Assembly: GCA_038240855.1 (NCBI GenBank)
Contig: JBBRGI010000001.1
Location: forward strand, 1 to 31,000
Direction of reading: 5' to 3'
Origin: Bacteroidales bacterium
GTDB taxonomy: Bacteria; Bacteroidota; Bacteroidia; Bacteroidales; Prolixibacteraceae
Length of the DNA: 31,000 nucleotides
Below the pieces are notes generated by a model. It did not search any database, was not told the DNA's origin, and saw nothing but the letters and a program-made list of their open reading frames with translations. Each line of letters opens with the position of its first letter. The first letter of the stretch is position 1. A program made the position numbers and the translations under genes. Of the stretch, positions 2,442-16,074 are shown piece after piece.

Positions 2442-3521
2442 ATGAACGTAAAATTTGTATTGATATTTGTTTTTTTCGTCCTGGGCTTCAATGTGAACGC
2501 TCAAAATACCTCTTTGGATTTCACCCGGCTCATTCCTGAACATCCTGAAAAACACATTTTTTCGATGCCCGGATACAATGTGTGGTGCAATGGCGTGGTG
2601 AAAGGTGATGACGGGAAATACCATATGTTCTTTTCGCGCTGGCCTAAAGCCCGTGGATTTGATGCCTGGGTCACCCATTCCGAAATTGCCCATGCCGTTT
2701 CCGATAATCTTTTTGGCCCTTATCACTTTTCTGATGTTTGTTTGCCTGCCCGTGGAAATCAATACTGGGATGGAGCCATGACCCATAACCCGCATGTGAT
2801 GAGGTACAACGGGAAATGCTATTTGTATTACACCGCCAACAAAGGCAGCGGATATTGGAATACCACCGCCGATACAGTGAAACCCCGGATGACGCATCCC
2901 GAATGGTGGGTGAACCGCAACAATCAGCGGGTTGGCGTTGCGGTGGCCGATAGCCCGTATGGTCCGTGGGAACGGTTCGACAAACCATTGATCGACATTA
3001 CACCCGGACGACGCACCACCGGGGTTCCTACCGTATTTCAGCGGCCTGATTGCAAATTCTCGCTGGCCTATAAATCGGTGATGGAAAAAGAAGGCTACAA
3101 AGGCGGTGCTGTAAAGCATTACATCTCGCTTTCCGATTCGCCGATGGGTCCATTTAAAGATTACGACAAGCCTTTTATCACTTCACCAAAATCCGATTTT
3201 CCGATCGACGATCATGTGGAGTGGTTTCAGGATGGAAAATATTACTGCATCGCCAAGGATCACGGCGATATGATTACCGAGCATGGCATCGCACTTTTAT
3301 TGTTCGAATCAGCCAACGGATTGGACTGGACGTTGTCGGCCAATTCATTGGTGCATAAATTCAGCATTACGTTTAAGGATGGCGAACACATGGAATTCGA
3401 CCGTTTTGAAATGCCCAAGGTTTACCTGGAAAACGGGAAAGTGGTTGCTTTGTTTCTGGCTGCCAAAACCAAAGGAAAGGAAGATTCGTTTTCGGTAGTG
3501 TTGCCGGTAACTTATAAATGA
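2442..3521 (+). CDS. Secreted five-bladed beta-propeller glycoside hydrolase (GH43/GH117-like clan), specificity unknown
   Basis: Signal peptide; motifs [51 protein letters not shown] are typical of Bacteroidetes GH43-like propellers. Confidence 0.7.
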
Positions 3522-3529
3522 TTGTTAAA

Positions 3530-5707
3530 ATGAAAAAAATACAATTGACACTTTTCTTGATGCTGTTTTGTTCGGTTTGGATCCATGCCAAATCAACCGA
3601 TAACGAATTAAAACTCTGGTACACCCAACCGGCCTCAAAATGGCTCGAAGCTTTACCAATCGGCAATGGCAGCCTTGGCGGAATGATTTTCGGTGGGGTG
3701 GAGCAGGAGCATATTCAGTTTAACGAAGAAAGCCTCATTACCGGAACCACCCAAACCGTTGGCTATTATCAGCCATTCGGCGATGTTTATCTCGATTTTT
3801 CCGGATTAAATTCCGAAAGTTATACCCGCGAACTGGATTTGAATAAGGGCATTCATCGGGTGAATTTTAAATCCAATGGCGTTAACTACCTGCGCGAATG
3901 CTTTGCCAGTTATCCTGATAAAGTTATTGTGTTGCGCCTCACCGCCAGCAAAAAAGGCATGATTTCAGGAAAAATCCGACTCAGCGATGCGCATCAGGCT
4001 GCAATTTCTGTTTCAGGAAATAAAATTATGGCTTCAGGCAAACTTACCGAAAACCAGATGGAATACGAATCGCAGATCCTGGTTCTGAATAAAGACGGAA
4101 AAATAACCTCCGATGCCACGGGAATTACGGTTCAGGGAGCCTCGGAGGTAACGGTTTTGCTCGCCGCTGGCACATCCTTTCTGAACGATTATCGCAAAGA
4201 TTTCAAAGGCGAACATCCTCATGCTGCCTTGACCAAACGTCTGTCAGATGCTTCGGCAAAATCGTATCAGCAACTTCGGAAAAATCAAGTAGCCGATTAC
4301 CAGGAATTGTTTAACCGTGTGAACCTCAATTTGGGTGCTACGCCCGGTCAGCCCACCATCGACCGCCTGAATGCCCATAAAAACGGGGTGAAAGACCCGG
4401 CACTCGAAGCCTTGCTGTTTCAGTACGGCCGCTATCTGCTGATCAGTTCGTCGCGCCCCGGAAGCCTGCCTGCCAACCTTCAGGGAATCTGGAACAACGA
4501 AACCAAGCCGGCCTGGTACTCGCAATACACCACCAACATCAACGTCGAAATGAATTACTGGCCAGCCGAGCAAACCGCTTTGCCGGAGTGCCATATGCCG
4601 CTGTTCGACTGGATCGAAAATTTTGCCGCGGTTCAGAAAAAATCGACCGATCCAAAGCTTCAAACCAAACGCGGCTGGATTTGTTACAGCACCAACAACA
4701 TCATGGGCGGCCCGTCAACCTGGGGAATTCACCGGCCGGGAAGCGCCTGGCTGAGCCAACATTTCTGGGAACATTACGCGTTTACCGGCGATCCGCAATT
4801 CCTGAAAACCCGGGCATACCCGATGCTGAAAGATGTTTCGGGCTATTGGGAAGACCATTTGATTGAAAGCAAAGAAGGCAAACTGATTACCCCCGATGGC
4901 TGGTCGCCCGAACATGGCCCCGGAAATGTGGAAGGCGACCGCACTCCCTATCCCGGCGTTTCGTACGATCAGCAAATTGTGTACGACCTGTTCAGCAATT
5001 GCATCGAGGCGGCAGAGGCACTGGGCGCAGATGCCGATTACAGCAAGGAGCTCACCGCGAAGCGAAACCGCTTGCTGGGTCCGCAAATTGGTAAGTGGGG
5101 ACAGTTGCAGGAATGGATGGAAGATGTTGATTTGCAGGATGACCACCACCGCCACAATTCGCATTTGTTTGCAGTTCATCCCGGAAGGCAGATCAGCCCG
5201 CTGACAACGCCCGGTTTTGCCAAGGCCGCCATGGTTTCGCTTAATGCCCGTGGCGATATCAGCACCGGTTGGAGCACCGCCTGGAAAATAAACCTCTTTG
5301 CACGTTTGGGCGAGGGTAACCGCTCTTACGATTTAATCCGCCAGCTTTTCCGGCAGTGCATCGTCGAAAATCTGTTCGACACGCATCCTCCATTTCAAAT
5401 GGACGGAAACTTTGGCTACACTTCGGGCGTGGCCGAAATGTTGCTCCAAAGCCAGATTAAAGAGGGAAATCATTATATCCTTCAACTGCTGCCAGCTTTG
5501 CCCGATGCGTGGATTAACGGCGAAGTAAAAGGCCTGAGGGCACGCGGTGGTTTTGTGGTGGATATGAAATGGAAGAACGGGAAATTGATCGACTGCAAAG
5601 TGAAATCATTGCTGGGAAACGACTTGAAAGTTGTTTACAACGGTAAGAAATTCATGGTAAACACTGTAAAAGATAAAATCTATATTCCTGACACGGTTTT
5701 AAATTAA
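3530..5707 (+). CDS. GH95 alpha-L-fucosidase (second copy)
   Basis: ORF track starts at 3518; MKKIQL at 3530 gives a cleaner signal peptide. Canonical motifs [37 protein letters not shown]. Confidence 0.93.
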
Positions 5708-5715
5708 ACTTCTGA

Positions 5716-7152
5716 ATGCAGCCTTTCCGGATAAAATTATCGCCCTTTGTATGCCTTGCCTGTTTGGTGAGTCTTTCTTCGCTTTCGACCCAAGCCCAAA
5801 ATCCTGTGGTTGATAAGCAAAGCCTCATCGCTGCCAGCCAGGCCGGGGCAAGTCCGCTGTATTTTTATCCTGAAGCGTTTGATTGGCCGGGTATTCAGCC
5901 TTCAGGCTTTAGCAATCTCGTTGAATTCAACGAGAGGGATGGGTTGCCCAATTTTTTCAATAAACTGAAATCGAATAAACCTGTCATCATCGGGTACCTG
6001 GGCGGAAGCATTACACGTGCCGACAATCAATACCGGGTGCAATCGGCAAAGTTTGTACAAAGGCTGTTTCCAAAAGCCAAAATCACCGGCATCAATGCAG
6101 GCGTTTCGGGAACCGGAACCGATTTGGGAGCCTGCCGACTGCACGAACAACTGCTGAAATACAATCCCGACCTGGTTTTTGTGGAGTTTGCCGTAAATGG
6201 TGCTTTTGCCGAAGGTATGGAAGGAATTATTCGGCAGATATGGAAGTTTAATTCCAAAATTGACATTTGCCTCATTTACACCATTACCGATGGATTGGGA
6301 AAGATTTATGCCGGTGGTGGAGTTCCGCAGCACATCGCCAAACTGGATCAACTTGCCGGACATTATGACATTCCATCCATCCATTTGGGCATGGAAGCCG
6401 CTTTTCTGGAAAAAGATAATAAGCTGATCTGGAAAGGAAATCCCGATCAGGCGAAAGATAAAATTGTTTTCTCTGCCGATGGGGTTCATCCCTTGCAAGC
6501 GGGCGGAAACCTCTATGCAGAAGCCATCGCCAGGGCCATCATAAAAATGAAAAACCAGCATTCTCCCCAAAAGCATTCTTTGCCAAAGCCATTGCTGCCC
6601 GACAACTGGGAGGATGCCAAAATGCTGGATCCTATGCAATTTACTTCGTTCAGTGGAGCCTGGGAAAAAATCAATCCGTCAGGGATCGACTACTTAAATC
6701 AGTTTGCAGGATGGTTTCCTTATTTGATGAAAGCCGAAAAGCCGGGTGCATCGTTTTCATTTCAGTTCGAAGGAAATATGTTCGGACTGTTTGATATTGG
6801 TGGCCCGGAGGTAGGTCAACTCGAAATTGAACTGGATGGCGCGAAAGTGAACTTAAAGCACTTGAACGCAGAGAACTATGAGGTAACAACAGACACCTCA
6901 ACCATTAAATTCATCAACCGTTTTAACCGGTTTTGCAATAACCGCTATCGTGGTCAATGTGCTTTTATCAAGGTCCGTCCGGGTAAACATCAGGTAAAAA
7001 TAATTATTTCAGAAATTATTCCCGACAAGAACAGAATTTTGGGTGAAAACCAATTAGTCGATATCACCGAACACCCGGAGAAATACAACCGTACGGTAGA
7101 ATACCTTGGGGAAATACTTATCCGAGGTGAGCTTTTAAAAATAAAGAATTGA
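5716..7152 (+). CDS. SGNH/GDSL hydrolase (putative carbohydrate esterase) with C-terminal beta domain
   Basis: Block I YLGGSIT, block II GVSGTG, block III EFAVNG, block V DGVHP; N-terminal signal peptide. Confidence 0.85.
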   Translation: MQPFRIKLSPFVCLACLVSLSSLSTQAQNPVVDKQSLIAASQAGASPLYFYPEAFDWPGIQPSGFSNLVEFNERDGLPNFFNKLKSNKPVIIGYLGGSITRADNQYRVQSAKFVQRLFPKAKITGINAGVSGTGTDLGACRLHEQLLKYNPDLVFVEFAVNGAFAEGMEGIIRQIWKFNSKIDICLIYTITDGLGKIYAGGGVPQHIAKLDQLAGHYDIPSIHLGMEAAFLEKDNKLIWKGNPDQAKDKIVFSADGVHPLQAGGNLYAEAIARAIIKMKNQHSPQKHSLPKPLLPDNWEDAKMLDPMQFTSFSGAWEKINPSGIDYLNQFAGWFPYLMKAEKPGASFSFQFEGNMFGLFDIGGPEVGQLEIELDGAKVNLKHLNAENYEVTTDTSTIKFINRFNRFCNNRYRGQCAFIKVRPGKHQVKIIISEIIPDKNRILGENQLVDITEHPEKYNRTVEYLGEILIRGELLKIKN

Positions 7153-7171
7153 TAGTATAATTTTTAGGGAA

Positions 7172-7894
7172 ATGAAACGATTATTAATGCCATTTTTATT
7201 CTTCTTAACCTTGGCAGTTCATGGACAAACCAAGGGTCTATTACAAAACGAACAGTCTTCTTATTTAATTAATTTGAAAAGCGAGTTGCAGGTTGAATGG
7301 CCAAAAAACCGAACCATCAACATTGTATTCCATGGTCATAGTGTTCCTTCCGGATACTTTAAAACGCCGTTGGTAAATACAATGGGGGCATATCCAAATT
7401 TGTTTCTGAAAAAATTGAAAGCAATCTATCCGTTTGCAGTGGTAAATGTTATTGTAACCGCCATTGGTGGTGAAAATTCGGTGAAAGGGGCAGCACGTTT
7501 TGAAAGTGATGTGCTCATTCATAAACCCGATATTGTGCTGATTGATTATGCATTAAACGATCGTAATGTTGGATCGGATAAAGCAAATGCTGCTTGGACG
7601 CAAATGATAAAACAAGCGAAAGATCGGGGAATTAAAGTGATTTTGTTAACTCCTTCTCCGGACCAAAGCGTGAACTATGCTGATCCGGATAACGAGCTGA
7701 ATAAACATGCGGATCAGATACGTCGTTTAGCAGAAGAGAATCAAGTTGGTCTGGTTGACAGCTATAAAGCATTTGAATTCCTTTATCAGGATAAGGAAAA
7801 ACTCAGTAAATACATGGCTCAGGTCAATCATCCCAACGAATTAGGGCATGAACTCATTGCTGAGGAGATTTTAAAATGGTTTCAAATAAAGTAA
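7172..7894 (+). CDS. Small secreted SGNH hydrolase, copy A
   Basis: FHGHSVP (block I Ser), AIGGENS, DYALND, NHPNELGH; signal peptide. Confidence 0.85.
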   Translation: MKRLLMPFLFFLTLAVHGQTKGLLQNEQSSYLINLKSELQVEWPKNRTINIVFHGHSVPSGYFKTPLVNTMGAYPNLFLKKLKAIYPFAVVNVIVTAIGGENSVKGAARFESDVLIHKPDIVLIDYALNDRNVGSDKANAAWTQMIKQAKDRGIKVILLTPSPDQSVNYADPDNELNKHADQIRRLAEENQVGLVDSYKAFEFLYQDKEKLSKYMAQVNHPNELGHELIAEEILKWFQIK

Positions 7895-7899
7895 AAAAC

Positions 7900-9609
7900 A
7901 TGAAAAAATTAGGATGCTTACTTTTATTTTTTTTTCTAATACAGACCATTGTGTCTTCCCAAAACCTGAAACATCCCGAGGAATCCCTTCCGATGGCTAA
8001 AGTTCCGGTAGAAATAGCGTCAGGCCCATGTGAACCCACGTGGAAATCGTTGGGCGATAACTTTAGATCGCCTGCCTGGTTTCGTCAGGCTAAAATCGGG
8101 ATGTGGTTGCATTGGGGGCCCCAGTCTATCGGTGAAGACGGCGACTGGTATGCCAAGTGGATTTATATGCCTCAGTCTGCCTGGCGCGATTACACACGGG
8201 TCTATCCCCATCATCTTGAACGGGTCGGTCATCCCAGCAAATATGGGTATAAAGACATGCTCCCGTTGTGGAAAGCCGAAAAGTGGGATCCCGACAAACT
8301 GATGGCCTTGTACAAACGTGCCGGAGCCCGCTATGTAATTGCCCAGGGGATGCACCACGACAATTTTGATCTCTGGAACTCCAAATACCAACCTTGGAAC
8401 TCTGTTAAAATTGGCCCGAAACGCGATATTGTCGGCGGATGGAAAGCAGCCGCGGATAAAGAAGGAATGAAATTCGGCATCGCCTTTCATGGCGATTATT
8501 CGCTTTTCTGGTTTCAACCGGCTTTCCTTAGCGACCTGGAAGGACCGATGAAAGGTGTGCCTTACGATGGCGCTCAAAACTACGATGGCAAAGATACCTG
8601 GTGGAAAAGGATGGGACTCGACTTGAAAGATCTCTATGGTATTGATTTGAAAGAGGATGTGGTTTATCCGGCTGATTTTAAAGGCGATTCGGTGGCTTTC
8701 CGGATGAAAGACCCACTGTCTCATGGCATTCCCGATGGTAACCTGAAAAAGAACATCGACTTTGCCCGATGGTACTGCACCAAATGGACCAACCGGGTAG
8801 TGGATGCCATCGACCAGTTTTCGCCCGATTTTATCTATTTCGACGGAGGAGGCAGTTACCCATTTTGTGGTTGGTTCACCGGTCGGGGCTACCGGTCTGA
8901 TGCTACACCTCGCGTAATAGCACATTTGTACAATAAAAATATGCAGAAGAATGGCGGTAAACTGGAAGCCATGGCCTTCACCAAAGGTAATGAAGATCAT
9001 CGTGCAATCGCCGTGAATGTGGAGTCGCGCTTCCCTGAAGGAATTAAAAAAGATCAGCCCTGGCAAACCGAAGTTGGTATGGGCGAGTGGTTCTACTTCA
9101 AAGGAACTTTTTACGAAAGCGGCATGGTCATTCACCAAATGCTGGAAGCCATTTCGCGCGATGGGAATTATGTGATCAACATCCCTCTGACCCCTTCAGG
9201 AGAATTGGATCCGGGCGGTGAACAAACCCTGAAAGATATGGGCGACTGGATGGACATCAACGGCGAAGGAATCTACAACTCTTCAGCATGGAAGGTTTGG
9301 GGCGAAGGGAAAATAGTGATGGAACGTGGGAACCTGGGGCCCAAACAGGCTGCAACTCCTTACACCTCTGAAAACATTCGCTTTACAGTGAACAACGGCA
9401 ACCTCTATGCCTGGCTCATGGCCTGGCCAACTGACAACAAGGTGGTTGTGAAATCGCTTCCGTTATCCTCCGGAAAAATAACTGCTGTGGTCTTGCTGGG
9501 CAGCAAGGAAAAGCTGAAATGGAAACAAACCGAAAAAGGATTGGAAGTAACCTTGCCAGCCAAACAGCCCTGCAAATTTGCTTTTGGATTGAAAATAAAG
9601 GAAATGTAG
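7900..9609 (+). CDS. GH29 alpha-L-fucosidase family protein
   Basis: ORF track starts at 7876; MKKLGC at 7900 is more likely. Motifs WFRQAKIGMWLHWGP, HHDNFDLWNS, FIYFDGG (nucleophile Asp), PWQT, DGNYVINIP, WMDINGEGIY. Confidence 0.9.
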   Translation: MKKLGCLLLFFFLIQTIVSSQNLKHPEESLPMAKVPVEIASGPCEPTWKSLGDNFRSPAWFRQAKIGMWLHWGPQSIGEDGDWYAKWIYMPQSAWRDYTRVYPHHLERVGHPSKYGYKDMLPLWKAEKWDPDKLMALYKRAGARYVIAQGMHHDNFDLWNSKYQPWNSVKIGPKRDIVGGWKAAADKEGMKFGIAFHGDYSLFWFQPAFLSDLEGPMKGVPYDGAQNYDGKDTWWKRMGLDLKDLYGIDLKEDVVYPADFKGDSVAFRMKDPLSHGIPDGNLKKNIDFARWYCTKWTNRVVDAIDQFSPDFIYFDGGGSYPFCGWFTGRGYRSDATPRVIAHLYNKNMQKNGGKLEAMAFTKGNEDHRAIAVNVESRFPEGIKKDQPWQTEVGMGEWFYFKGTFYESGMVIHQMLEAISRDGNYVINIPLTPSGELDPGGEQTLKDMGDWMDINGEGIYNSSAWKVWGEGKIVMERGNLGPKQAATPYTSENIRFTVNNGNLYAWLMAWPTDNKVVVKSLPLSSGKITAVVLLGSKEKLKWKQTEKGLEVTLPAKQPCKFAFGLKIKEM

Positions 9610-9666
9610 TAAAAAACTTTAGAAAATAAACTAATCAAATAAAACCGTTAAATGGAAGGGAATAAG

Positions 9667-10383
9667 ATGAAAAAACTATTTTTCACATTGCTAATTTTAA
9701 TATCCATTATCACAAGAGGTCAGAAGATTGAACCAATCTTAGCAAATAATGCAACCTATTTAGTTGATTTGAAAAAGGAGTTGCAGGTTGAGTGGCCAAA
9801 AAACCGAACCATCAACATTGTATTACATGGTCATAGTGTTCCTTCTGGATACTTTAAAACGCCGTTGGTAAATACAATGGGGGCCTATCCCTATTTGTTC
9901 TTTAAAAAGCTGAAAGCAATCTATCCGTTTGCAGTGGTGAATGTCATTGTAACCGCCATTGGTGGTGAGAATTCGGTGAAAGGGGCAGCACGTTTTGAAA
10001 GCGATGTGCTCATTCATAAACCCGATGTTTTGCTGATCGATTATGCATTAAACGATCGAAATGTTGGACTAGAGAAAGCAAATGCGGCCTGGACTCAAAT
10101 GATAAATCAAGCGAAAGCTCTGGGAATAAAGGTAATTTTACTGACGCCATCTCCAGACCAAAGTGTCAATTATGCCGATCCTGATAACGAACTTAAAAAG
10201 CATGCCGATCAAATTCGTCGGTTGGCCGAAGAAAATCAGGTAGGTCTGGCAGACAGCTATCAAGCGTTTGAATTTCTCTATTCAGACAAAAAGAAACTCG
10301 GCAAATACATGTCCCAGATCAATCATCCCAACGAATTGGGGCATGAATTGATTGTAGAAGAAATTATAAAATGGTTTAAATAA
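9667..10383 (+). CDS. Small secreted SGNH hydrolase, copy B (paralog of 7172..7894)
   Basis: ORF track starts at 9652; MKKLFF at 9667. 20 differences in 200 aligned residues versus copy A (hand count). Confidence 0.85.
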   Translation: MKKLFFTLLILISIITRGQKIEPILANNATYLVDLKKELQVEWPKNRTINIVLHGHSVPSGYFKTPLVNTMGAYPYLFFKKLKAIYPFAVVNVIVTAIGGENSVKGAARFESDVLIHKPDVLLIDYALNDRNVGLEKANAAWTQMINQAKALGIKVILLTPSPDQSVNYADPDNELKKHADQIRRLAEENQVGLADSYQAFEFLYSDKKKLGKYMSQINHPNELGHELIVEEIIKWFK

Positions 10384-10414
10384 ATAGTGCGATAACAAAT
10401 AAAAAAAATCAGTC

Positions 10415-13400
10415 ATGTCAGTAAAAAACTTCACCGCGTTTGTTTTCATTCTTGCATTTCTTGCATCGAACGGACAAGATAAAAAACTCCCTCCCGGTTT
10501 CCCGGATCGTTCCCCGAACCTGAATGTTCTTCCCGGATTTAAAACCCCTCCGAAAGGTTACGGTGAAGTATCTTTCTACTGGTGGCTGGGCGATACCCTG
10601 ACCAAAGAAAGAATAACCTCACAGTTGGATCAACTCAAAGACAAAAGCATCACCGGATTGCAGATTAACTACTGCCATACCGATAAAGGGGGCGCCAGTT
10701 ATGGCTTGACTTACCCCAGTCAGCCGGCCTTGTTCAGCGCAAAATGGTGGGAGCTGTTTCAATGGTTTTTGAAAGAGGCCAAAAAGCGCGACATGTCTGT
10801 CAGTCTGAGCGATTATACCCTCGGCGCTGCCGGCCAGGGTTGGTTTGTGGATGAAATGCTGAAAGAGAACAAGAATTACGGCTCAAAACTGGAAGCCAGG
10901 CAATTTGATGCAAAAGGCAATCAAAATTTTAAAACCACGGTGCCTGAAGAGGTGATTACGGCCATCGCCTACCCGGTTGCAAACGGCATTTTGTCTTCCT
11001 CCAATTCGATCGATCTGAAATCTTCGATCAAAAATACGGAATTGGAATGGCAGGTGCCTAACGGAGATTGGAAACTGATCGTGGTATACCGAAAGACTGT
11101 AAAAACCTCGTTCGACCCGATGAATCCAATCAGTGGTGCACAGGTTACCGAAAAATTTTACCAACGTTTTGAAGATTATTGTCCGGGCGAATCGGGCAAA
11201 GGTTTGAACTTCTTTTTTTCCGATGAACTTCAGTTTGGCATCCGGGGATTTTTGTGGAACGACCAGTTTGCAACCGAATTTAAGAAACGGAAGGGATACG
11301 ATCTCTTCCCCGAATTGCCCCATTTGTTTGCCAATCTGGGTCCCCGGTCATACAAAATTCGCCTCGATTACAACGATGTAATGGTTGCCCTTTCGGAGGA
11401 TGGGTTCTTCAAACCAGTGTACGAATGGCACAACAGTCGCGGCATGTTGTTTGGCTGCGATCACGGCGGTCGCGGCAGGGATGTAACCGAGTTTGGCGAT
11501 TATTTCCGCACCCAGCGCTGGTTATCCGGTCCGGGTTGCGACCAGCCCGGATTAGGCAGAGACATTGTAAAAAATAAAGTAGCCAGCTCGATCGCACATT
11601 TGTACGAGCGCCCGCGAACCTGGCTCGAAGGATTTTATGGCAGCGGGTGGGGAACCAGCAGCGAAGAAGTGGCTGATGCAACCTTTGCCAATTTTGCGAT
11701 GGGGCAAAACCTGTTAAGCCTCCATGGCCTATATTACACGACGCATGGCAGTATGTGGGAATGGGCGGCGCCCGATAATCACTGGCGTCAGCCATACTGG
11801 AACAACATGGGTGATTTTCTGAAATGCTCCGAGCGACTGAGTTACGTGCTTTCCCAAGGGCATCATCGTTGCGATGTGGCTTTGATCTATCCCGTTGCTC
11901 CGGTGGAGGCCAACCTCAAAGGAAAGGAATCAACTGAAACAGCTTTTGCTATCGCCCGCGACCTTTACCCTGCCGGAATCGACTTCGACTTCATGGATTT
12001 CGAATCACTCGGCCGCTGCCGTATTCAGAATAAAGAACTGAATGTCAGCGGTGAAAAATACAAGGTATTGGTATTGCCGGCTTTAGCTGCGGTGCGGTAT
12101 GCGACCATTGAAAAAGCGTTGGAATTCTTCCGCTCAGGCGGCATCGTTCTGGCAGTTGGCGCCTTGCCCGAAGCCAGCGACCGGATTGGTGGAGACGACA
12201 CACAATTGCAATCGATGATCAAAGAAATGTTTGGAACGACATTTTCTGAAAAACATGACACAACCGTAGTCTATTCCCAAAAAAGTAAGGCCGGGGGGGC
12301 CGGCTTGTTCATTCACAACCCGATTGAAGTAAAAAAGGTCATCGACAAGTTGATTCAACGCGACTTTAAAGTATTATCCGGAGAGAATGTTCCCGGAATT
12401 CTTCACCGTAAAATTGGAAACCGCGATTTGTATTTTGTGTATGGCCTTGCGAAAGGTACAAGCTGTGAATTCCGGGCTACCGGAAAGGTTGAACTCTGGA
12501 ATCCCTGGAATGGAAGCACAAAGCCGTTGAAGGTAACTGCTGTTTCTGAAACAGGGACAACAATTGCGCTTCCTTTGGAAAAAAGCGAACCGCAACTGAT
12601 TGTTTTTAGTCCGGGGAAACCTAAATTAGAAAATGCAGCTTCCGCTTTCAGCGAAAAACTAAATACTTTGCTCATTGATAATGATTGGGAATTTGAATTG
12701 AAACCCACGCTCGACAACCAGTATGGTGATTACCGCCTGCCGGCTTTCGATGGCAAACTGGGAGTTGAAGTCTGGAAAATGAAATTTGCTGAAGAAAAAG
12801 CTGCAGTTCAGGGGCAAAATCCAACCTTGGACGACAGTGGGTGGACTACTGCAACCGTTGGATACGGACCACAATTCTGGAAGCTTGGCCCTATGCCTAA
12901 CGATATGGATTCGGTCGCCGTAGAGGCAAAGTTGGCCTCTCTGAAACAAGTTAATCCGGACGAGCCTGTTGAGGTAAACGGAAAGAAATATTACTGGAAG
13001 CCGTATGAATTCTCGTGGCGCTGGGGTTTGAAGGAGGATGCCGGGCATCAGGGATACCACGGCATGAAAGGAGAGGTAAACAATGAACTGATTTCTTTGG
13101 GTGCCATCGACAAATCGCGGAAACATATACCTGTTTATCCGCTTTCCGCTGAACCTGACGGAAGCATCTATTACCTTTGGTCGACAGTTTCATCAACCAA
13201 ACCGATGCAGGCCAAAATCATAAAATCCGGACTTTTGCCTGTAAAAATATACCTGAACAATCGTTTGACCGATAGGGAAACGGACATGATTGACTTACAT
13301 GCAGGGAACAATCCGGTATTGCTCAAATACAACAAAGTTGGCCGTGGGGTCTTTGTTTTTCAAGATGCTCAGGCTGATGCACATTGGAAACAGTCCGTTC

Positions 13401-14110
13401 CATTGGCCACAAATTGGTACCTGAATCCGGCAATACTTCCTTACGATTGCAATCCGCAGGCAAGAGGACAATTTGGTTGGTACCGGTTTGTATCGCCTCC
13501 CGGAACCCAAACTTTTTATGTCACTTCACAAGCAAAGCCCGAAGTATGGGTCGCCGGAAAGGAATATCCTTGCGAGCCCGGGCAACTGCAGTCCGGAAGA
13601 ATCGCCGATGCGAACCTCAAAACCTGGAAAGTGAATTTGACTGAAACGATGCCGGTATCTGTCACCATTGCACTAAAAATGGAGCAACTACCCGGATTCT
13701 TTGGTGGTTCGGCGATTCCTGAACCTGTAATTTTCGAGTGCGAAAAGGGAAGAATCCAATTGGGCGATCTGGGCGAAAACGAATCATTGAAAACCTATTC
13801 AGGGGGAATGTGGTACCGTAAAACCATCAAAATGTCGCCGGAGCAGGCTGATTCAAAACAGATTGTCCTCGATTTAGGGCGGGTCGTGGCTTCGGCCGAA
13901 GTGATTGTAAACGGCAAAACGGTAGGTTCAAAATCTTCGTCACCATGGACATTCGACCTTTCAGGAAAAGTGATTTCTGGAGACAATAAAATTGAAATTC
14001 TTGTTTATAACACGCTCGGCAACCATTACCTGACCACGCCATCGCAATATGTTGGAAGGATCAATTCAGGGCTGATTGGGCCTGTAGATATTAATTTCTC
14101 AATAAAATAA
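10415..14110 (+). CDS. GH106-like alpha-L-rhamnosidase, 1231 aa, with C-terminal GH2-type jelly-roll
   Basis: Signal peptide; FYWWLG, LSDYTLG, FFSDE, SSIAHLY, NLLSLHG, CDVALIYP, DFDFMD and C-terminal LDLGRV..SAEVIVNG...NKIEILVYNTL...SGLIGPV are typical of GH106. Confidence 0.75.
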   Translation: MSVKNFTAFVFILAFLASNGQDKKLPPGFPDRSPNLNVLPGFKTPPKGYGEVSFYWWLGDTLTKERITSQLDQLKDKSITGLQINYCHTDKGGASYGLTYPSQPALFSAKWWELFQWFLKEAKKRDMSVSLSDYTLGAAGQGWFVDEMLKENKNYGSKLEARQFDAKGNQNFKTTVPEEVITAIAYPVANGILSSSNSIDLKSSIKNTELEWQVPNGDWKLIVVYRKTVKTSFDPMNPISGAQVTEKFYQRFEDYCPGESGKGLNFFFSDELQFGIRGFLWNDQFATEFKKRKGYDLFPELPHLFANLGPRSYKIRLDYNDVMVALSEDGFFKPVYEWHNSRGMLFGCDHGGRGRDVTEFGDYFRTQRWLSGPGCDQPGLGRDIVKNKVASSIAHLYERPRTWLEGFYGSGWGTSSEEVADATFANFAMGQNLLSLHGLYYTTHGSMWEWAAPDNHWRQPYWNNMGDFLKCSERLSYVLSQGHHRCDVALIYPVAPVEANLKGKESTETAFAIARDLYPAGIDFDFMDFESLGRCRIQNKELNVSGEKYKVLVLPALAAVRYATIEKALEFFRSGGIVLAVGALPEASDRIGGDDTQLQSMIKEMFGTTFSEKHDTTVVYSQKSKAGGAGLFIHNPIEVKKVIDKLIQRDFKVLSGENVPGILHRKIGNRDLYFVYGLAKGTSCEFRATGKVELWNPWNGSTKPLKVTAVSETGTTIALPLEKSEPQLIVFSPGKPKLENAASAFSEKLNTLLIDNDWEFELKPTLDNQYGDYRLPAFDGKLGVEVWKMKFAEEKAAVQGQNPTLDDSGWTTATVGYGPQFWKLGPMPNDMDSVAVEAKLASLKQVNPDEPVEVNGKKYYWKPYEFSWRWGLKEDAGHQGYHGMKGEVNNELISLGAIDKSRKHIPVYPLSAEPDGSIYYLWSTVSSTKPMQAKIIKSGLLPVKIYLNNRLTDRETDMIDLHAGNNPVLLKYNKVGRGVFVFQDAQADAHWKQSVPLATNWYLNPAILPYDCNPQARGQFGWYRFVSPPGTQTFYVTSQAKPEVWVAGKEYPCEPGQLQSGRIADANLKTWKVNLTETMPVSVTIALKMEQLPGFFGGSAIPEPVIFECEKGRIQLGDLGENESLKTYSGGMWYRKTIKMSPEQADSKQIVLDLGRVVASAEVIVNGKTVGSKSSSPWTFDLSGKVISGDNKIEILVYNTLGNHYLTTPSQYVGRINSGLIGPVDINFSIK

Positions 14111-14121
14111 AAACAATCACA

Positions 14122-16074
14122 ATGAAGAATAAAACTTTTTTCCCTGCTTTAATATTACTGGTTTGTTTAGGCCTGTTTGCCAAGGCTCAAACCAAAGAAA
14201 CCACTCCGGTTTACAAACCATTTGTCAACCAGGCCGGATACAATCTGGGTGAGTCGAAACGATTTGTCTGCTATGGTGCGCCAGACAATACGCCGTTTAA
14301 AATTATGGATACCAAAACCAAACTACCAGTTTTTGAAGGCAAAATGCTGAACAACGAAGGCTGGTTTTCAGAACTTAATCCGGTAACTTCCGGTGACGAA
14401 TATGTGGTTGAAGTGGCTGGTTACGGCCAGTCGAAATCCTTCTGGATTGCCGACCATTTGATGGAAAAAGTATCGTCAAAACTGGCGTATGATTTTTTTG
14501 TGGATGTGCGTGGTTACGACGATCTGGACAAATACGATATGTCGAAGGTGTATGGTGGCGGCCCTTCGCGCGATGGTGGCGCTTATGGTTTGGAAGCTAC
14601 TTTCGAAGTGTTGCAGTATGCGGCCAATCCGGCTTTGTACGACAACTGGAAAACAGAGTTGGGCGATAAAAATGTGCCCGATCTGATTGATCTGATTCTC
14701 TGGCATGCTGAATATGCCTACAAATATGTGGATTACAATGGCCCCACCGGATACCGTCATGGAACACTTGGTTATGAAGGTCAGCCACGTATGAATTACG
14801 ATTACTGGAATACGCTCGATCATCTGGCTGCTGTTTGTGCCGCCTATCATTCTTTCCTGAAACCATACCTTTCAGAAGAAAAATATCAGAAGTACCGCAA
14901 AGCCTGTCTGGATAACTGGGAGAAATACGACCGCCATAAAGTAGTGCGCTACTGGACTTACAGCAGTAAATGGGTTGATCAGGGATTTCAGGAATTTAAC
15001 GAGATGGGTAATGCTTTTGGGCAATCGGTTTTCAGTAACCTGTTTATGTATTTGTGCGAGAAAAACGAGAAAAATGGTCAGCCCGATAAGTTTTTGAAAT
15101 ATGCACAGGAAAGTGCAACGGATATCATTACCAATTGGGATTTCAACAACCCGCGGCAGATGTGGTGGATTCGCAATGCCGAGCACATCACGCCACAAGC
15201 ATTGGCCTGGTTCCTGATGGTGGCTCCTGATAAGGCACCTGCCGGATCGCGCGAAAAACTTGCCGCATGGGCTAATCACATGAAGCAGAAAACCAACAAT
15301 TTCTGGAAATACCGGATGCACAGCGAAACCGAATGGGCACATGCCAAAACAAAAGAATTAGGCGGGGCACCTGCTTTGGGCGGTTCGATGTTTGCCGTGG
15401 CCTATTTGTTAAACGATAAGGCATTGCGCGATTTGGGCTGGGCACAGGTCGATTTCGTTTTTGGGGTAAATCCGGTTGGCACACACCTGAGCAATAAAAG
15501 CGATGAACGGGTAAAAATCGGCGGTTTCTGGGAAGGTGTTGAAGAAGGCTGGCCACAGGCTCATCCCGATGGCTATGGAAGGCTTGGGCTGGTTCGCGGA
15601 ACGCTCGATGGTACTCCGTTGGACAGCCAATTCCCTATTGCCAAAACAGTTGAAAAGATAGTGGGTCAGAATGAAGGACAGATTTTTGGCAAAAATGCCT
15701 ACGCCACCGAGGGCTGGTGCGTTTCGAACCGGGGTTGGGAAGCAACCGTAACTTTTGCCACATTGGGAAGTCAGCAAATTAAACTGTACGATGCCGATTA
15801 TAAAAAGGAAATAACAAAGGCCAAACCGGGACAAACCATCACTGTTGAACTGAAAGCTGCCCTAAACCAGGATTGGAACAAAGTGGATCAGGGCTGGGTC
15901 GAAATCAGCACTGGAAACGAAGCTGCCAAAATGCTGAAAGTGAGCGAAACCGGCGCCAATACCGGAATCTTTACGGCTAAATATGTCACTCCAAAGGTTA
16001 AAAAGGGAAGTCAACTGGAGGTATCGTACGGCTATTTTGGATTTGGGAAATTAATTAGGCTAACAATTCAATAG
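14122..16074 (+). CDS. Secreted divergent GH9-like protein (N-terminal Ig-like domain plus probable (alpha/alpha)6 barrel)
   Basis: N-terminal FVNQAGY resembles the CelD_N VNQxGY motif; GGGPSRDGGAY aligns to GGWYDAGDY; AQVDFVFGVNP aligns to QxDYxLGxNP; YATEGWCVSN aligns to YxxNEvaixxN. Confidence 0.5.
   Translation: MKNKTFFPALILLVCLGLFAKAQTKETTPVYKPFVNQAGYNLGESKRFVCYGAPDNTPFKIMDTKTKLPVFEGKMLNNEGWFSELNPVTSGDEYVVEVAGYGQSKSFWIADHLMEKVSSKLAYDFFVDVRGYDDLDKYDMSKVYGGGPSRDGGAYGLEATFEVLQYAANPALYDNWKTELGDKNVPDLIDLILWHAEYAYKYVDYNGPTGYRHGTLGYEGQPRMNYDYWNTLDHLAAVCAAYHSFLKPYLSEEKYQKYRKACLDNWEKYDRHKVVRYWTYSSKWVDQGFQEFNEMGNAFGQSVFSNLFMYLCEKNEKNGQPDKFLKYAQESATDIITNWDFNNPRQMWWIRNAEHITPQALAWFLMVAPDKAPAGSREKLAAWANHMKQKTNNFWKYRMHSETEWAHAKTKELGGAPALGGSMFAVAYLLNDKALRDLGWAQVDFVFGVNPVGTHLSNKSDERVKIGGFWEGVEEGWPQAHPDGYGRLGLVRGTLDGTPLDSQFPIAKTVEKIVGQNEGQIFGKNAYATEGWCVSNRGWEATVTFATLGSQQIKLYDADYKKEITKAKPGQTITVELKAALNQDWNKVDQGWVEISTGNEAAKMLKVSETGANTGIFTAKYVTPKVKKGSQLEVSYGYFGFGKLIRLTIQ

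Follow-up and report, generated by a model that had tools for sequence, protein, structure and literature searches.

A GH9-related putative glycosidase family with an altered catalytic-base motif, encoded at the end of a fucosidase- and rhamnosidase-type operon in a Prolixibacteraceae genome

In the assembly of a Bacteroidales bacterium affiliated with the Prolixibacteraceae (GenBank GCA_038240855.1), the first 31,000 nucleotides of contig JBBRGI010000001.1, referred to below as the window, harbor an operon whose last gene (14122..16074, + strand) is an intact open reading frame (ORF) for a putative glycosidase of 650 amino acids. This target protein is related to glycoside hydrolase family 9 (GH9) and belongs to an uncharacterized family. 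On the + strand, the operon comprises in order a GH95, a propeller-type protein, a second GH95, three SGNH esterases together with a GH29, a GH106 and, starting 11 nt past the GH106 stop codon, the target gene. Two BD-FAE esterases and a LytTR two-component system can be found on its 3' side, and the other strand of the window carries two more GH29 genes, a RhaT-type transporter and putative demethylation genes. These neighbors (two GH95, a GH29, a GH106, three SGNH esterases and two BD-FAE esterases) had been listed in a preliminary description of the DNA, and all of them were found. A terminator and promoter scan around the target gene gave background level. The window starts at base 1 of the contig (C1), in an assembly of 378 contigs that is 81% complete.

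The target protein begins with a predicted type I signal peptide (MKNK...FAKA followed by Q; 14122..14187, +), read by eye and by comparison with the N-termini of 20 orthologues. An N-terminal immunoglobulin (Ig)-like domain (residues 33-110; 14218..14451, +) follows, with the motif FVNQAGY at residues 34-40. Evidence for this domain comes from the beta strands of the structural model, from alignment to the Ig domains of GH9 proteins and from a weak match to CelD_N (PF02927; 21.1 bits for a cut-off of 24.6, E 5.5e-4), a cut-off which is passed by several relatives of the target. The putative catalytic domain is an (alpha/alpha)6 barrel (residues 113-545; 14458..15756, +), assigned from twelve helices in the model, from the top structural matches, which are GH9 proteins, and from hhalign. 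A beta-sandwich domain (residues 552-649; 15775..16068, +) is found at the C-terminus and is kept throughout the family, non-Bacteroidota members included. That it could be a sorting domain of the type IX secretion system (T9SS) was ruled out, as it has no NCBIfam match and is conserved in phyla without T9SS.

Regarding the catalytic motifs, positions 14566-14589 translate as SRDGGAYG where GH9 has WHDAGDY. The hexapeptide RDGGAY (14569..14586, +), counterpart of the GH9 HDAGDY, includes Asp151 (codon 14572-14574) and, at the position of the GH9 catalytic-base Asp, Ala154 (codon 14581-14583). The sequence QVDFVFGVNP is found at residues 442-451. Further downstream, positions 15700-15729 translate as YATEGWCVSN, in which Glu530 (codon 15709..15711, +) is, by alignment and by its invariance in the family, the counterpart of the GH9 general acid. 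All of these motifs, as well as the Asp at 14572, the Ala replacing the second Asp and the Glu at 15709, had been correctly placed in the preliminary description, and the Ig-like N-terminus and GH9-like motif order that it proposed are supported by the model and the alignments.

The relationship with GH9 was examined using an alignment of 42 target-family sequences (A2), which served both as a hidden Markov model (HMM) and as an hhalign profile. Against a reference set drawn from related genomes, consisting of six true Ig-GH9 proteins, hhalign returned a probability of 99.7% in global mode (E 1.4e-24) and 98.6% in local mode (E 8e-16). R150-D151-G-G-A154-Y155 was mapped onto H-D-A-G-D-Y, QVDFVFGVNP onto the GH9 FG-x-N motif and T529-E530 onto the N-E of the acid motif. 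The family HMM also matches CelD (1clc/4cj0) with an E value of 1.7e-8, placing wRDshqf on WHDAGDY. The homology of the target family with GH9 is secure, far beyond chance.

Nevertheless, the family sits outside the GH9 sequence models, and the target goes undetected in Pfam GH9, NCBIfam and PDB sequence searches. No match to the GH9 domain PF00759 was obtained for the target protein in a Pfam search to E 10, nor for nine of its relatives. When the whole assembly was searched with PF00759, two true GH9 fragments were recovered on other contigs, and the target gene was not. The target had no match in NCBIfam, and its sequence alone, searched against the PDB, returned nothing up to E 10. As for the PROSITE patterns of GH9 (PS60032 as printed in PMC6032398; PS00592 and PS00698), they are matched neither by the target nor by any of 42 family members, but only one or two of the six true GH9 controls are recognized by each pattern, which indicates low sensitivity.

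In a model predicted by AlphaFold from A2 (mean pLDDT 85.5, pTM 0.89), the barrel with GH9 as its closest relative that had been anticipated is indeed found. The top ranks of a Foldseek search against the PDB are all occupied by GH9 proteins (E 1e-13 to 1e-8; 12-17% identity). With VIA-align, in an all-against-all structural search, Z is 25.2 for 5dgq, 23.8 for 6fhn and 22.1 for CelD (4cj1). The best GH9 matches lie at Z 21-25 (21.6-25.2 for Ig-GH9) over 427-446 aligned residues, and the next fold families, GH105/GH88, at 17-18.6. The structural alignments take in residues from about 27-31 onwards, upstream of the barrel, and the fold and feature searches of the ESM Atlas are concordant with a GH9-type fold. 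A GH9-type architecture, in which an Ig-like domain precedes an (alpha/alpha)6 barrel, is supported by the predicted model.

The Ig-GH9 proteins to which the target can best be compared are the Photobacterium exo-beta-D-glucosaminidase PBPRA0520 (5dgq), CelD from C. thermocellum (1clc/4cj0) and BoGH9A from B. ovatus (6dht). Features that align between this group and the target are the first DAGD Asp, the Glu acting as acid, the Arg of the first helix motif and FG-x-NP. Unlike these enzymes, the target has an Ala at the second Asp (Gln, Tyr or His in relatives), its family has an invariant Arg where GH9 has the His preceding the first Asp, and a conserved beta-sandwich is added at the C-terminus. 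The top Foldseek match is the GH9 endo-xanthanase from Paenibacillus nanensis (6fhj/6fhn; Z 23.8, 12-15% identity to the target), a multi-domain Ig-GH9 that, according to its entry title, cuts a decorated heteropolysaccharide and not cellulose.

Residue conservation was tallied over about 133 close and 105 distant family members. Asp151 is invariant (236/236 of those examined) and so is Glu530 (244/244). Arg130, Arg150, Asn306, Arg351, Glu354, Trp395, Arg398, Trp405, Glu412 (Glu or Asp), Asp444, Asn450, Trp477, Trp532 and Asn536 are near-invariant. In contrast, where DAGD has its second Asp, the family has Ala, Ser, Leu or Gly in the close clade and most commonly Gln, Tyr, His, Ala, Phe or Gly in distant members, Asp being among the commonest residues in neither. 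In GH9, the catalytic base is the C-terminal of the two DAGD Asp residues, the N-terminal one being an essential support (PMC6032398), and the base role was assigned by azide rescue to Asp58 of Cel9A (PMC4071793). The family therefore keeps the acid and the supporting Asp, and it does not keep the established base. Both halves of this statement, retention of the acid Glu and first Asp and loss of the second, had been read from the target gene alone. The base motif described there as rewritten is real, yet it is not special to this gene, being a trait of the family across hundreds of species.

Loss of the base residue could be taken to mean that the target is a catalytically dead, carbohydrate-binding descendant of GH9. 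On the model, the conserved residues are located either in loops N-terminal to the inner helices or at the C-terminus of helix 11. To judge from topology, this would be the catalytic face of (alpha/alpha)6 glycosidases, a pattern that suggests a functional active site at the normal position and speaks against a dead protein. In addition to the acid Glu and the first Asp, about 12 polar or aromatic residues of this face are invariant across phyla, orthologues from different bacterial classes share 70-88% identity, and the gene is found inside enzyme operons, not beside SusD-type binding proteins. A dead protein is accordingly a highly improbable explanation.

It can also be hypothesized that the target is merely a very divergent GH9, of the beta-1,4-glucanase, xyloglucanase or exo-glucosaminidase type, in which the motif change is tolerated as in rare variants. 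The closest structures are GH9 proteins, PS60032 permits Asp, Ser or Asn at the base position and natural variants with Asn or Gly at this position are known in GH9 (PMC6032398). Against such a reading stand the failure of PF00759 to match either the target or nine relatives, the 12-17% identity to GH9 structures and the composition of the family itself, in which about 240 members share motifs of their own (WRDSHQFSFE, GQRMSEH, NEPGN, TEGW) and Asp is not among the commonest base-position residues; the gene neighborhoods considered below also bear on it.

The family is large and widely distributed. A word-index search gave 449 relatives of the target, many of them orthologues of 70-88% identity in Prolixibacteraceae, Chitinophagaceae, Cyclobacteriaceae, Maribellus, Zobellia, Arenibacter and Kriegella. 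An exhaustive search gave 229 clusters at the 50% level and includes proteins of about 30% identity, often multi-domain, with F5/8-type-C, Golvesin_C and other modules. The scan of species-representative genomes yielded 310 confirmed family matches. At least seven phyla are concerned, namely Bacteroidota, Verrucomicrobiota, Planctomycetota, Actinomycetota, Bacillota, Chloroflexota and Pseudomonadota. The target gene is nevertheless accessory, as a search of 23 genomes of the same genus gave full or partial matches in 5, and a sample of 16 genomes from the order's other families gave them in 1. A second family copy is present in the same genome on contig C340, where the assembly covers only its C-terminal 110 residues, which share 61% identity with the target.

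No solved or characterized family member was found in PDB and structural searches. A literature search of incomplete coverage, directed at GH9-related new families, the identifiers of the Zobellia and Maribellus orthologues, the fucanase families GH168, GH174 and GH187, and PF12831, returned no paper on the family. Identity with GH174 is unlikely, since its reported catalytic residues (D119, E120 and E218) do not fit the conserved D151 and E530. GH187, for which no fold was given, is still a possible match. The four new families of a 2026 preprint on screening of polysaccharide utilization loci (PULs) are GH140-like, GH36/27-like and alginate lyases, and are not GH9-like (10.64898/2026.05.19.726164). 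There is a modest chance that the family has already been classified somewhere. It can reasonably be regarded as a candidate new family of carbohydrate-active enzymes (CAZymes), set apart from GH9 by the Pfam, NCBIfam and PDB sequence searches. The preliminary proposal of a new CAZyme family is strengthened to this extent by those searches and by the lack of a solved or characterized member among the entries searched, formal novelty being unproven.

Considering the genes that accompany the target in the window, the first of the operon is a GH95 (1-2430, +) cut at its 5' end by the end of the contig, so that an upstream SusC/D pair, if any, lies outside the window. The next gene encodes a 359-amino-acid protein of the five-bladed-propeller type (2442..3521, +), weakly GH43-like (Pfam E 1.3e-7) and GH117-like (PDB matches, E 1e-7). 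It is followed by the second GH95 (3518..5707, +), for which the nearest relative of known structure is the alpha-1,2-fucosidase FucOB. These two genes turn out to be the conserved partners of the target. The gene directly upstream of the target in the same operon encodes a GH106-type rhamnosidase of 1231 amino acids (10415..14110, +).

Conservation of these associations was assessed over 80 family loci, using tblastn with the window proteins and de novo clustering of neighboring ORFs. The most faithful neighbor of the target family is the propeller, found in 20 of the 24 close-clade loci. The second GH95, with 74-85% identity, adjoins or lies near the target homologue in 10 of these 24, and the usual order in the GH95-bearing close loci is propeller, GH95, target. 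Both partners recur in Verrucomicrobiota, where four loci combine a distant family member with a GH95 of 55-59% identity. GH106 genes can also be found in loci L027, L031, L032, L035, L037 and L070.

The window GH106-type protein is itself unusually long and has a C-terminal GH2_N-like sugar-binding domain; a copy of 71% identity is present in L027, and similar GH106 proteins with GH2_N are found in the Maribellus locus. The region 5716-14110 (+), with its five genes (three SGNH esterases, GH29 and GH106) between GH95 and target, looks like an insertion into, or an expansion of, the operon: the target directly follows GH95 in L028, L032, L034, L035 and L036, and GH106 alone lies between them in L027.

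The locus from Zobellia galactanivorans (L024; FP476056.1, 4149237-4171180) harbors a sulfatase, a GH2 with a Golvesin_C domain, a 384-amino-acid propeller 42% identical to that of the window, a 433-amino-acid protein, two sulfatases, the target orthologue CAZ97732.1 and a lactonase-family gene. The 433-amino-acid protein, three genes from CAZ97732.1, is identical to PDB 4U6B, which we take to be the orphan GH117 paralogue Zg3597. CAZ97732.1 itself is probably ZOBELLIA_3594, by accession arithmetic from the supplement of the preprint. In that study, a GH117 clade of about 41 kDa, found in PULs with GH95, showed weak activity on para-nitrophenyl (pNP)-alpha-L-fucosides, and its CAZy-based maps of loci with a similar layout show 'unk' genes and no GH9 (10.64898/2026.05.19.726164). 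The window propeller resembles this clade in size and context and may belong to it.

Around distant family members, a different locus is repeated in Larkinella (L057, L061, L062, L069, L071 and L073) and in L051. It consists of LacI, SusC/D, a 375-amino-acid protein without a Pfam match, a flavoprotein and the family member, together with an 836-amino-acid protein of weak GH88 likeness, an SSF transporter, a GH2 and another flavoprotein. Two more unannotated families are found in the same locus.

The genomic context is one of fucose, rhamnose and sulfatase genes and not of glucan or chitin genes, a point of difference from the Ig-GH9 comparators. This conserved synteny with fucosidase-type and not glucan genes supports the suggestion, initially drawn from the position of the gene in its operon, that the target is unlikely to be an ordinary cellulase. 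Fucosylated xyloglucan loci do combine GH9, GH43 and GH95, which counts for a divergent GH9. The loci examined here, however, lack the sets of GH5, GH31-type xylosidase and GH3 of glucan loci and instead contain sulfatases, GH106, GH117-like genes and flavoproteins. Together with the sequence and motif differences given above, this renders a mere GH9 variant improbable.

Another recurrent neighbor is a flavin adenine dinucleotide (FAD)-dependent oxidoreductase of the PF12831 family (545-794 amino acids), present in 25 of the 80 loci and directly adjoining the family member in 15. The loci concerned span several Bacteroidota classes as well as Verrucomicrobiota and Planctomycetota, and include L032-L037, L055, L057, L080, L082 and L083. 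In the family tree, the associations with propeller and GH95 and those with PF12831 both recur on deep branches. The second family copy of the same genome (C340, positions 1-2714 of locus L109) ends 4 nt inside the start of a 794-amino-acid PF12831 gene. No close solved relative of the flavoprotein was found.

Because of this recurrent adjacency, a non-classical mechanism is kept as a rival to hydrolysis. The target might not be a simple hydrolase at all and might instead perform an acid-only non-hydrolytic or a redox-assisted cleavage, whether on a sugar pre-oxidized by the flavoprotein, by transglycosylation or with formation of an anhydro sugar. The occurrence of PF12831 across phyla, its overlap with the second copy, the family-wide absence of the canonical base and the lactonase-family gene found 3' of the Zobellia orthologues are all in agreement with such chemistry. 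On the other hand, the window copy has no flavoprotein neighbor, and PF12831 is multi-copy in this genome (18 matches), so that part of the adjacency may be due to chance. Moreover, relocation of the base is common in (alpha/alpha)6 hydrolases, and new chemistry is not required. A mechanism of this kind is therefore considered unlikely. The more specific proposal that the base-less GH9 offshoot and the adjacent flavoprotein constitute a two-enzyme unit for redox-assisted or non-classical glycosidic cleavage, with fucose- and rhamnose-rich or sulfated glycans as its targets, is very improbable.

With regards to localization, the 20 close-clade N-termini show signal peptides ending in Ala or Gly followed by Gln, and no lipobox Cys is conserved. 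Signal peptides together with extra N-terminal modules are found in members from Actinobacteria, Paenibacillus and Verrucomicrobiota, and the family is secreted in every phylum sampled, often with F5/8-C domains of the carbohydrate-binding module (CBM) type. As no lipobox Cys is conserved, the target is probably periplasmic and not exposed at the surface. A periplasmic location would fit action on imported oligosaccharides better than a surface endo-enzyme, although it does not by itself settle between endo and exo action. The best structural match, 5dgq, is an exo-acting GH9 whose lead over the other matches is narrow. In view of both observations, the earlier idea of an endo-acting or backbone enzyme for this locus finds no support. 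The possibility of a phosphorylase, an enzyme type that also lacks a base, was set aside given the signal peptides in all sampled phyla and the frequent CBM-type fusions.

From the homology, fold, residue conservation and synteny observed, we infer hydrolysis and its stereochemistry, as well as which residue is the base, what the substrate is and whether the mode is endo or exo. On balance, the target is best regarded as a secreted, probably periplasmic, inverting glycosidase of a GH9-related family, acting on oligosaccharides of fucose- and rhamnose-containing glycans; this reading is favored, with reservations. In such an enzyme, Glu530 would act as the general acid and Asp151 would be retained as the counterpart of the supporting first Asp of DAGD. 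Water could be activated by Asp151 itself, paired with the invariant Arg150, or else by one of the other carboxylates that are invariant in the family and share this barrel face (Glu354, Glu412 or Asp444), and cleavage would still proceed with inversion. A general base that was moved or changed with the acid left in place is seen in GH8 subfamilies and in GH95, where an Asn is activated by an Asp. These are separate families and offer precedent only. Working together with its GH95 and GH117-like partners, the target probably removes or cleaves a non-fucose residue in oligosaccharides of an acetylated, fucose- and rhamnose-rich glycan.

Several points weigh against this assignment as an inverting periplasmic glycosidase. 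The middle part of the alignment between target and GH9 is of low confidence. With the GH9 base missing, hydrolysis may be slow, different or absent. The substrate is proposed from the gene neighborhood alone, and activity data were looked for and found for no family member. Furthermore, neighborhoods vary with the clade, from the sulfatases and GH2 of Zobellia to the flavoprotein, SSF transporter and GH88-like protein of Larkinella, which makes it probable that family members differ in specificity.

Discoveries of GH families are made on a regular basis, and the substrate named here is a guess. If the proposed reading is correct, the family would constitute a new family of glycoside hydrolases that shares a clan with GH9, with hosts in soil, freshwater, marine and gut environments, and would reveal how catalysis by an (alpha/alpha)6 enzyme proceeds once the canonical base is lost. 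The locus from Zobellia galactanivorans offers a tractable model for the whole module. A function would also be given to a gene of 'unknown' type that accompanies GH95 and GH117-like fucosidases, which would help to explain the breakdown of fucose- and rhamnose-rich glycans, acetylated or sulfated, by the bacteria that harbor it.

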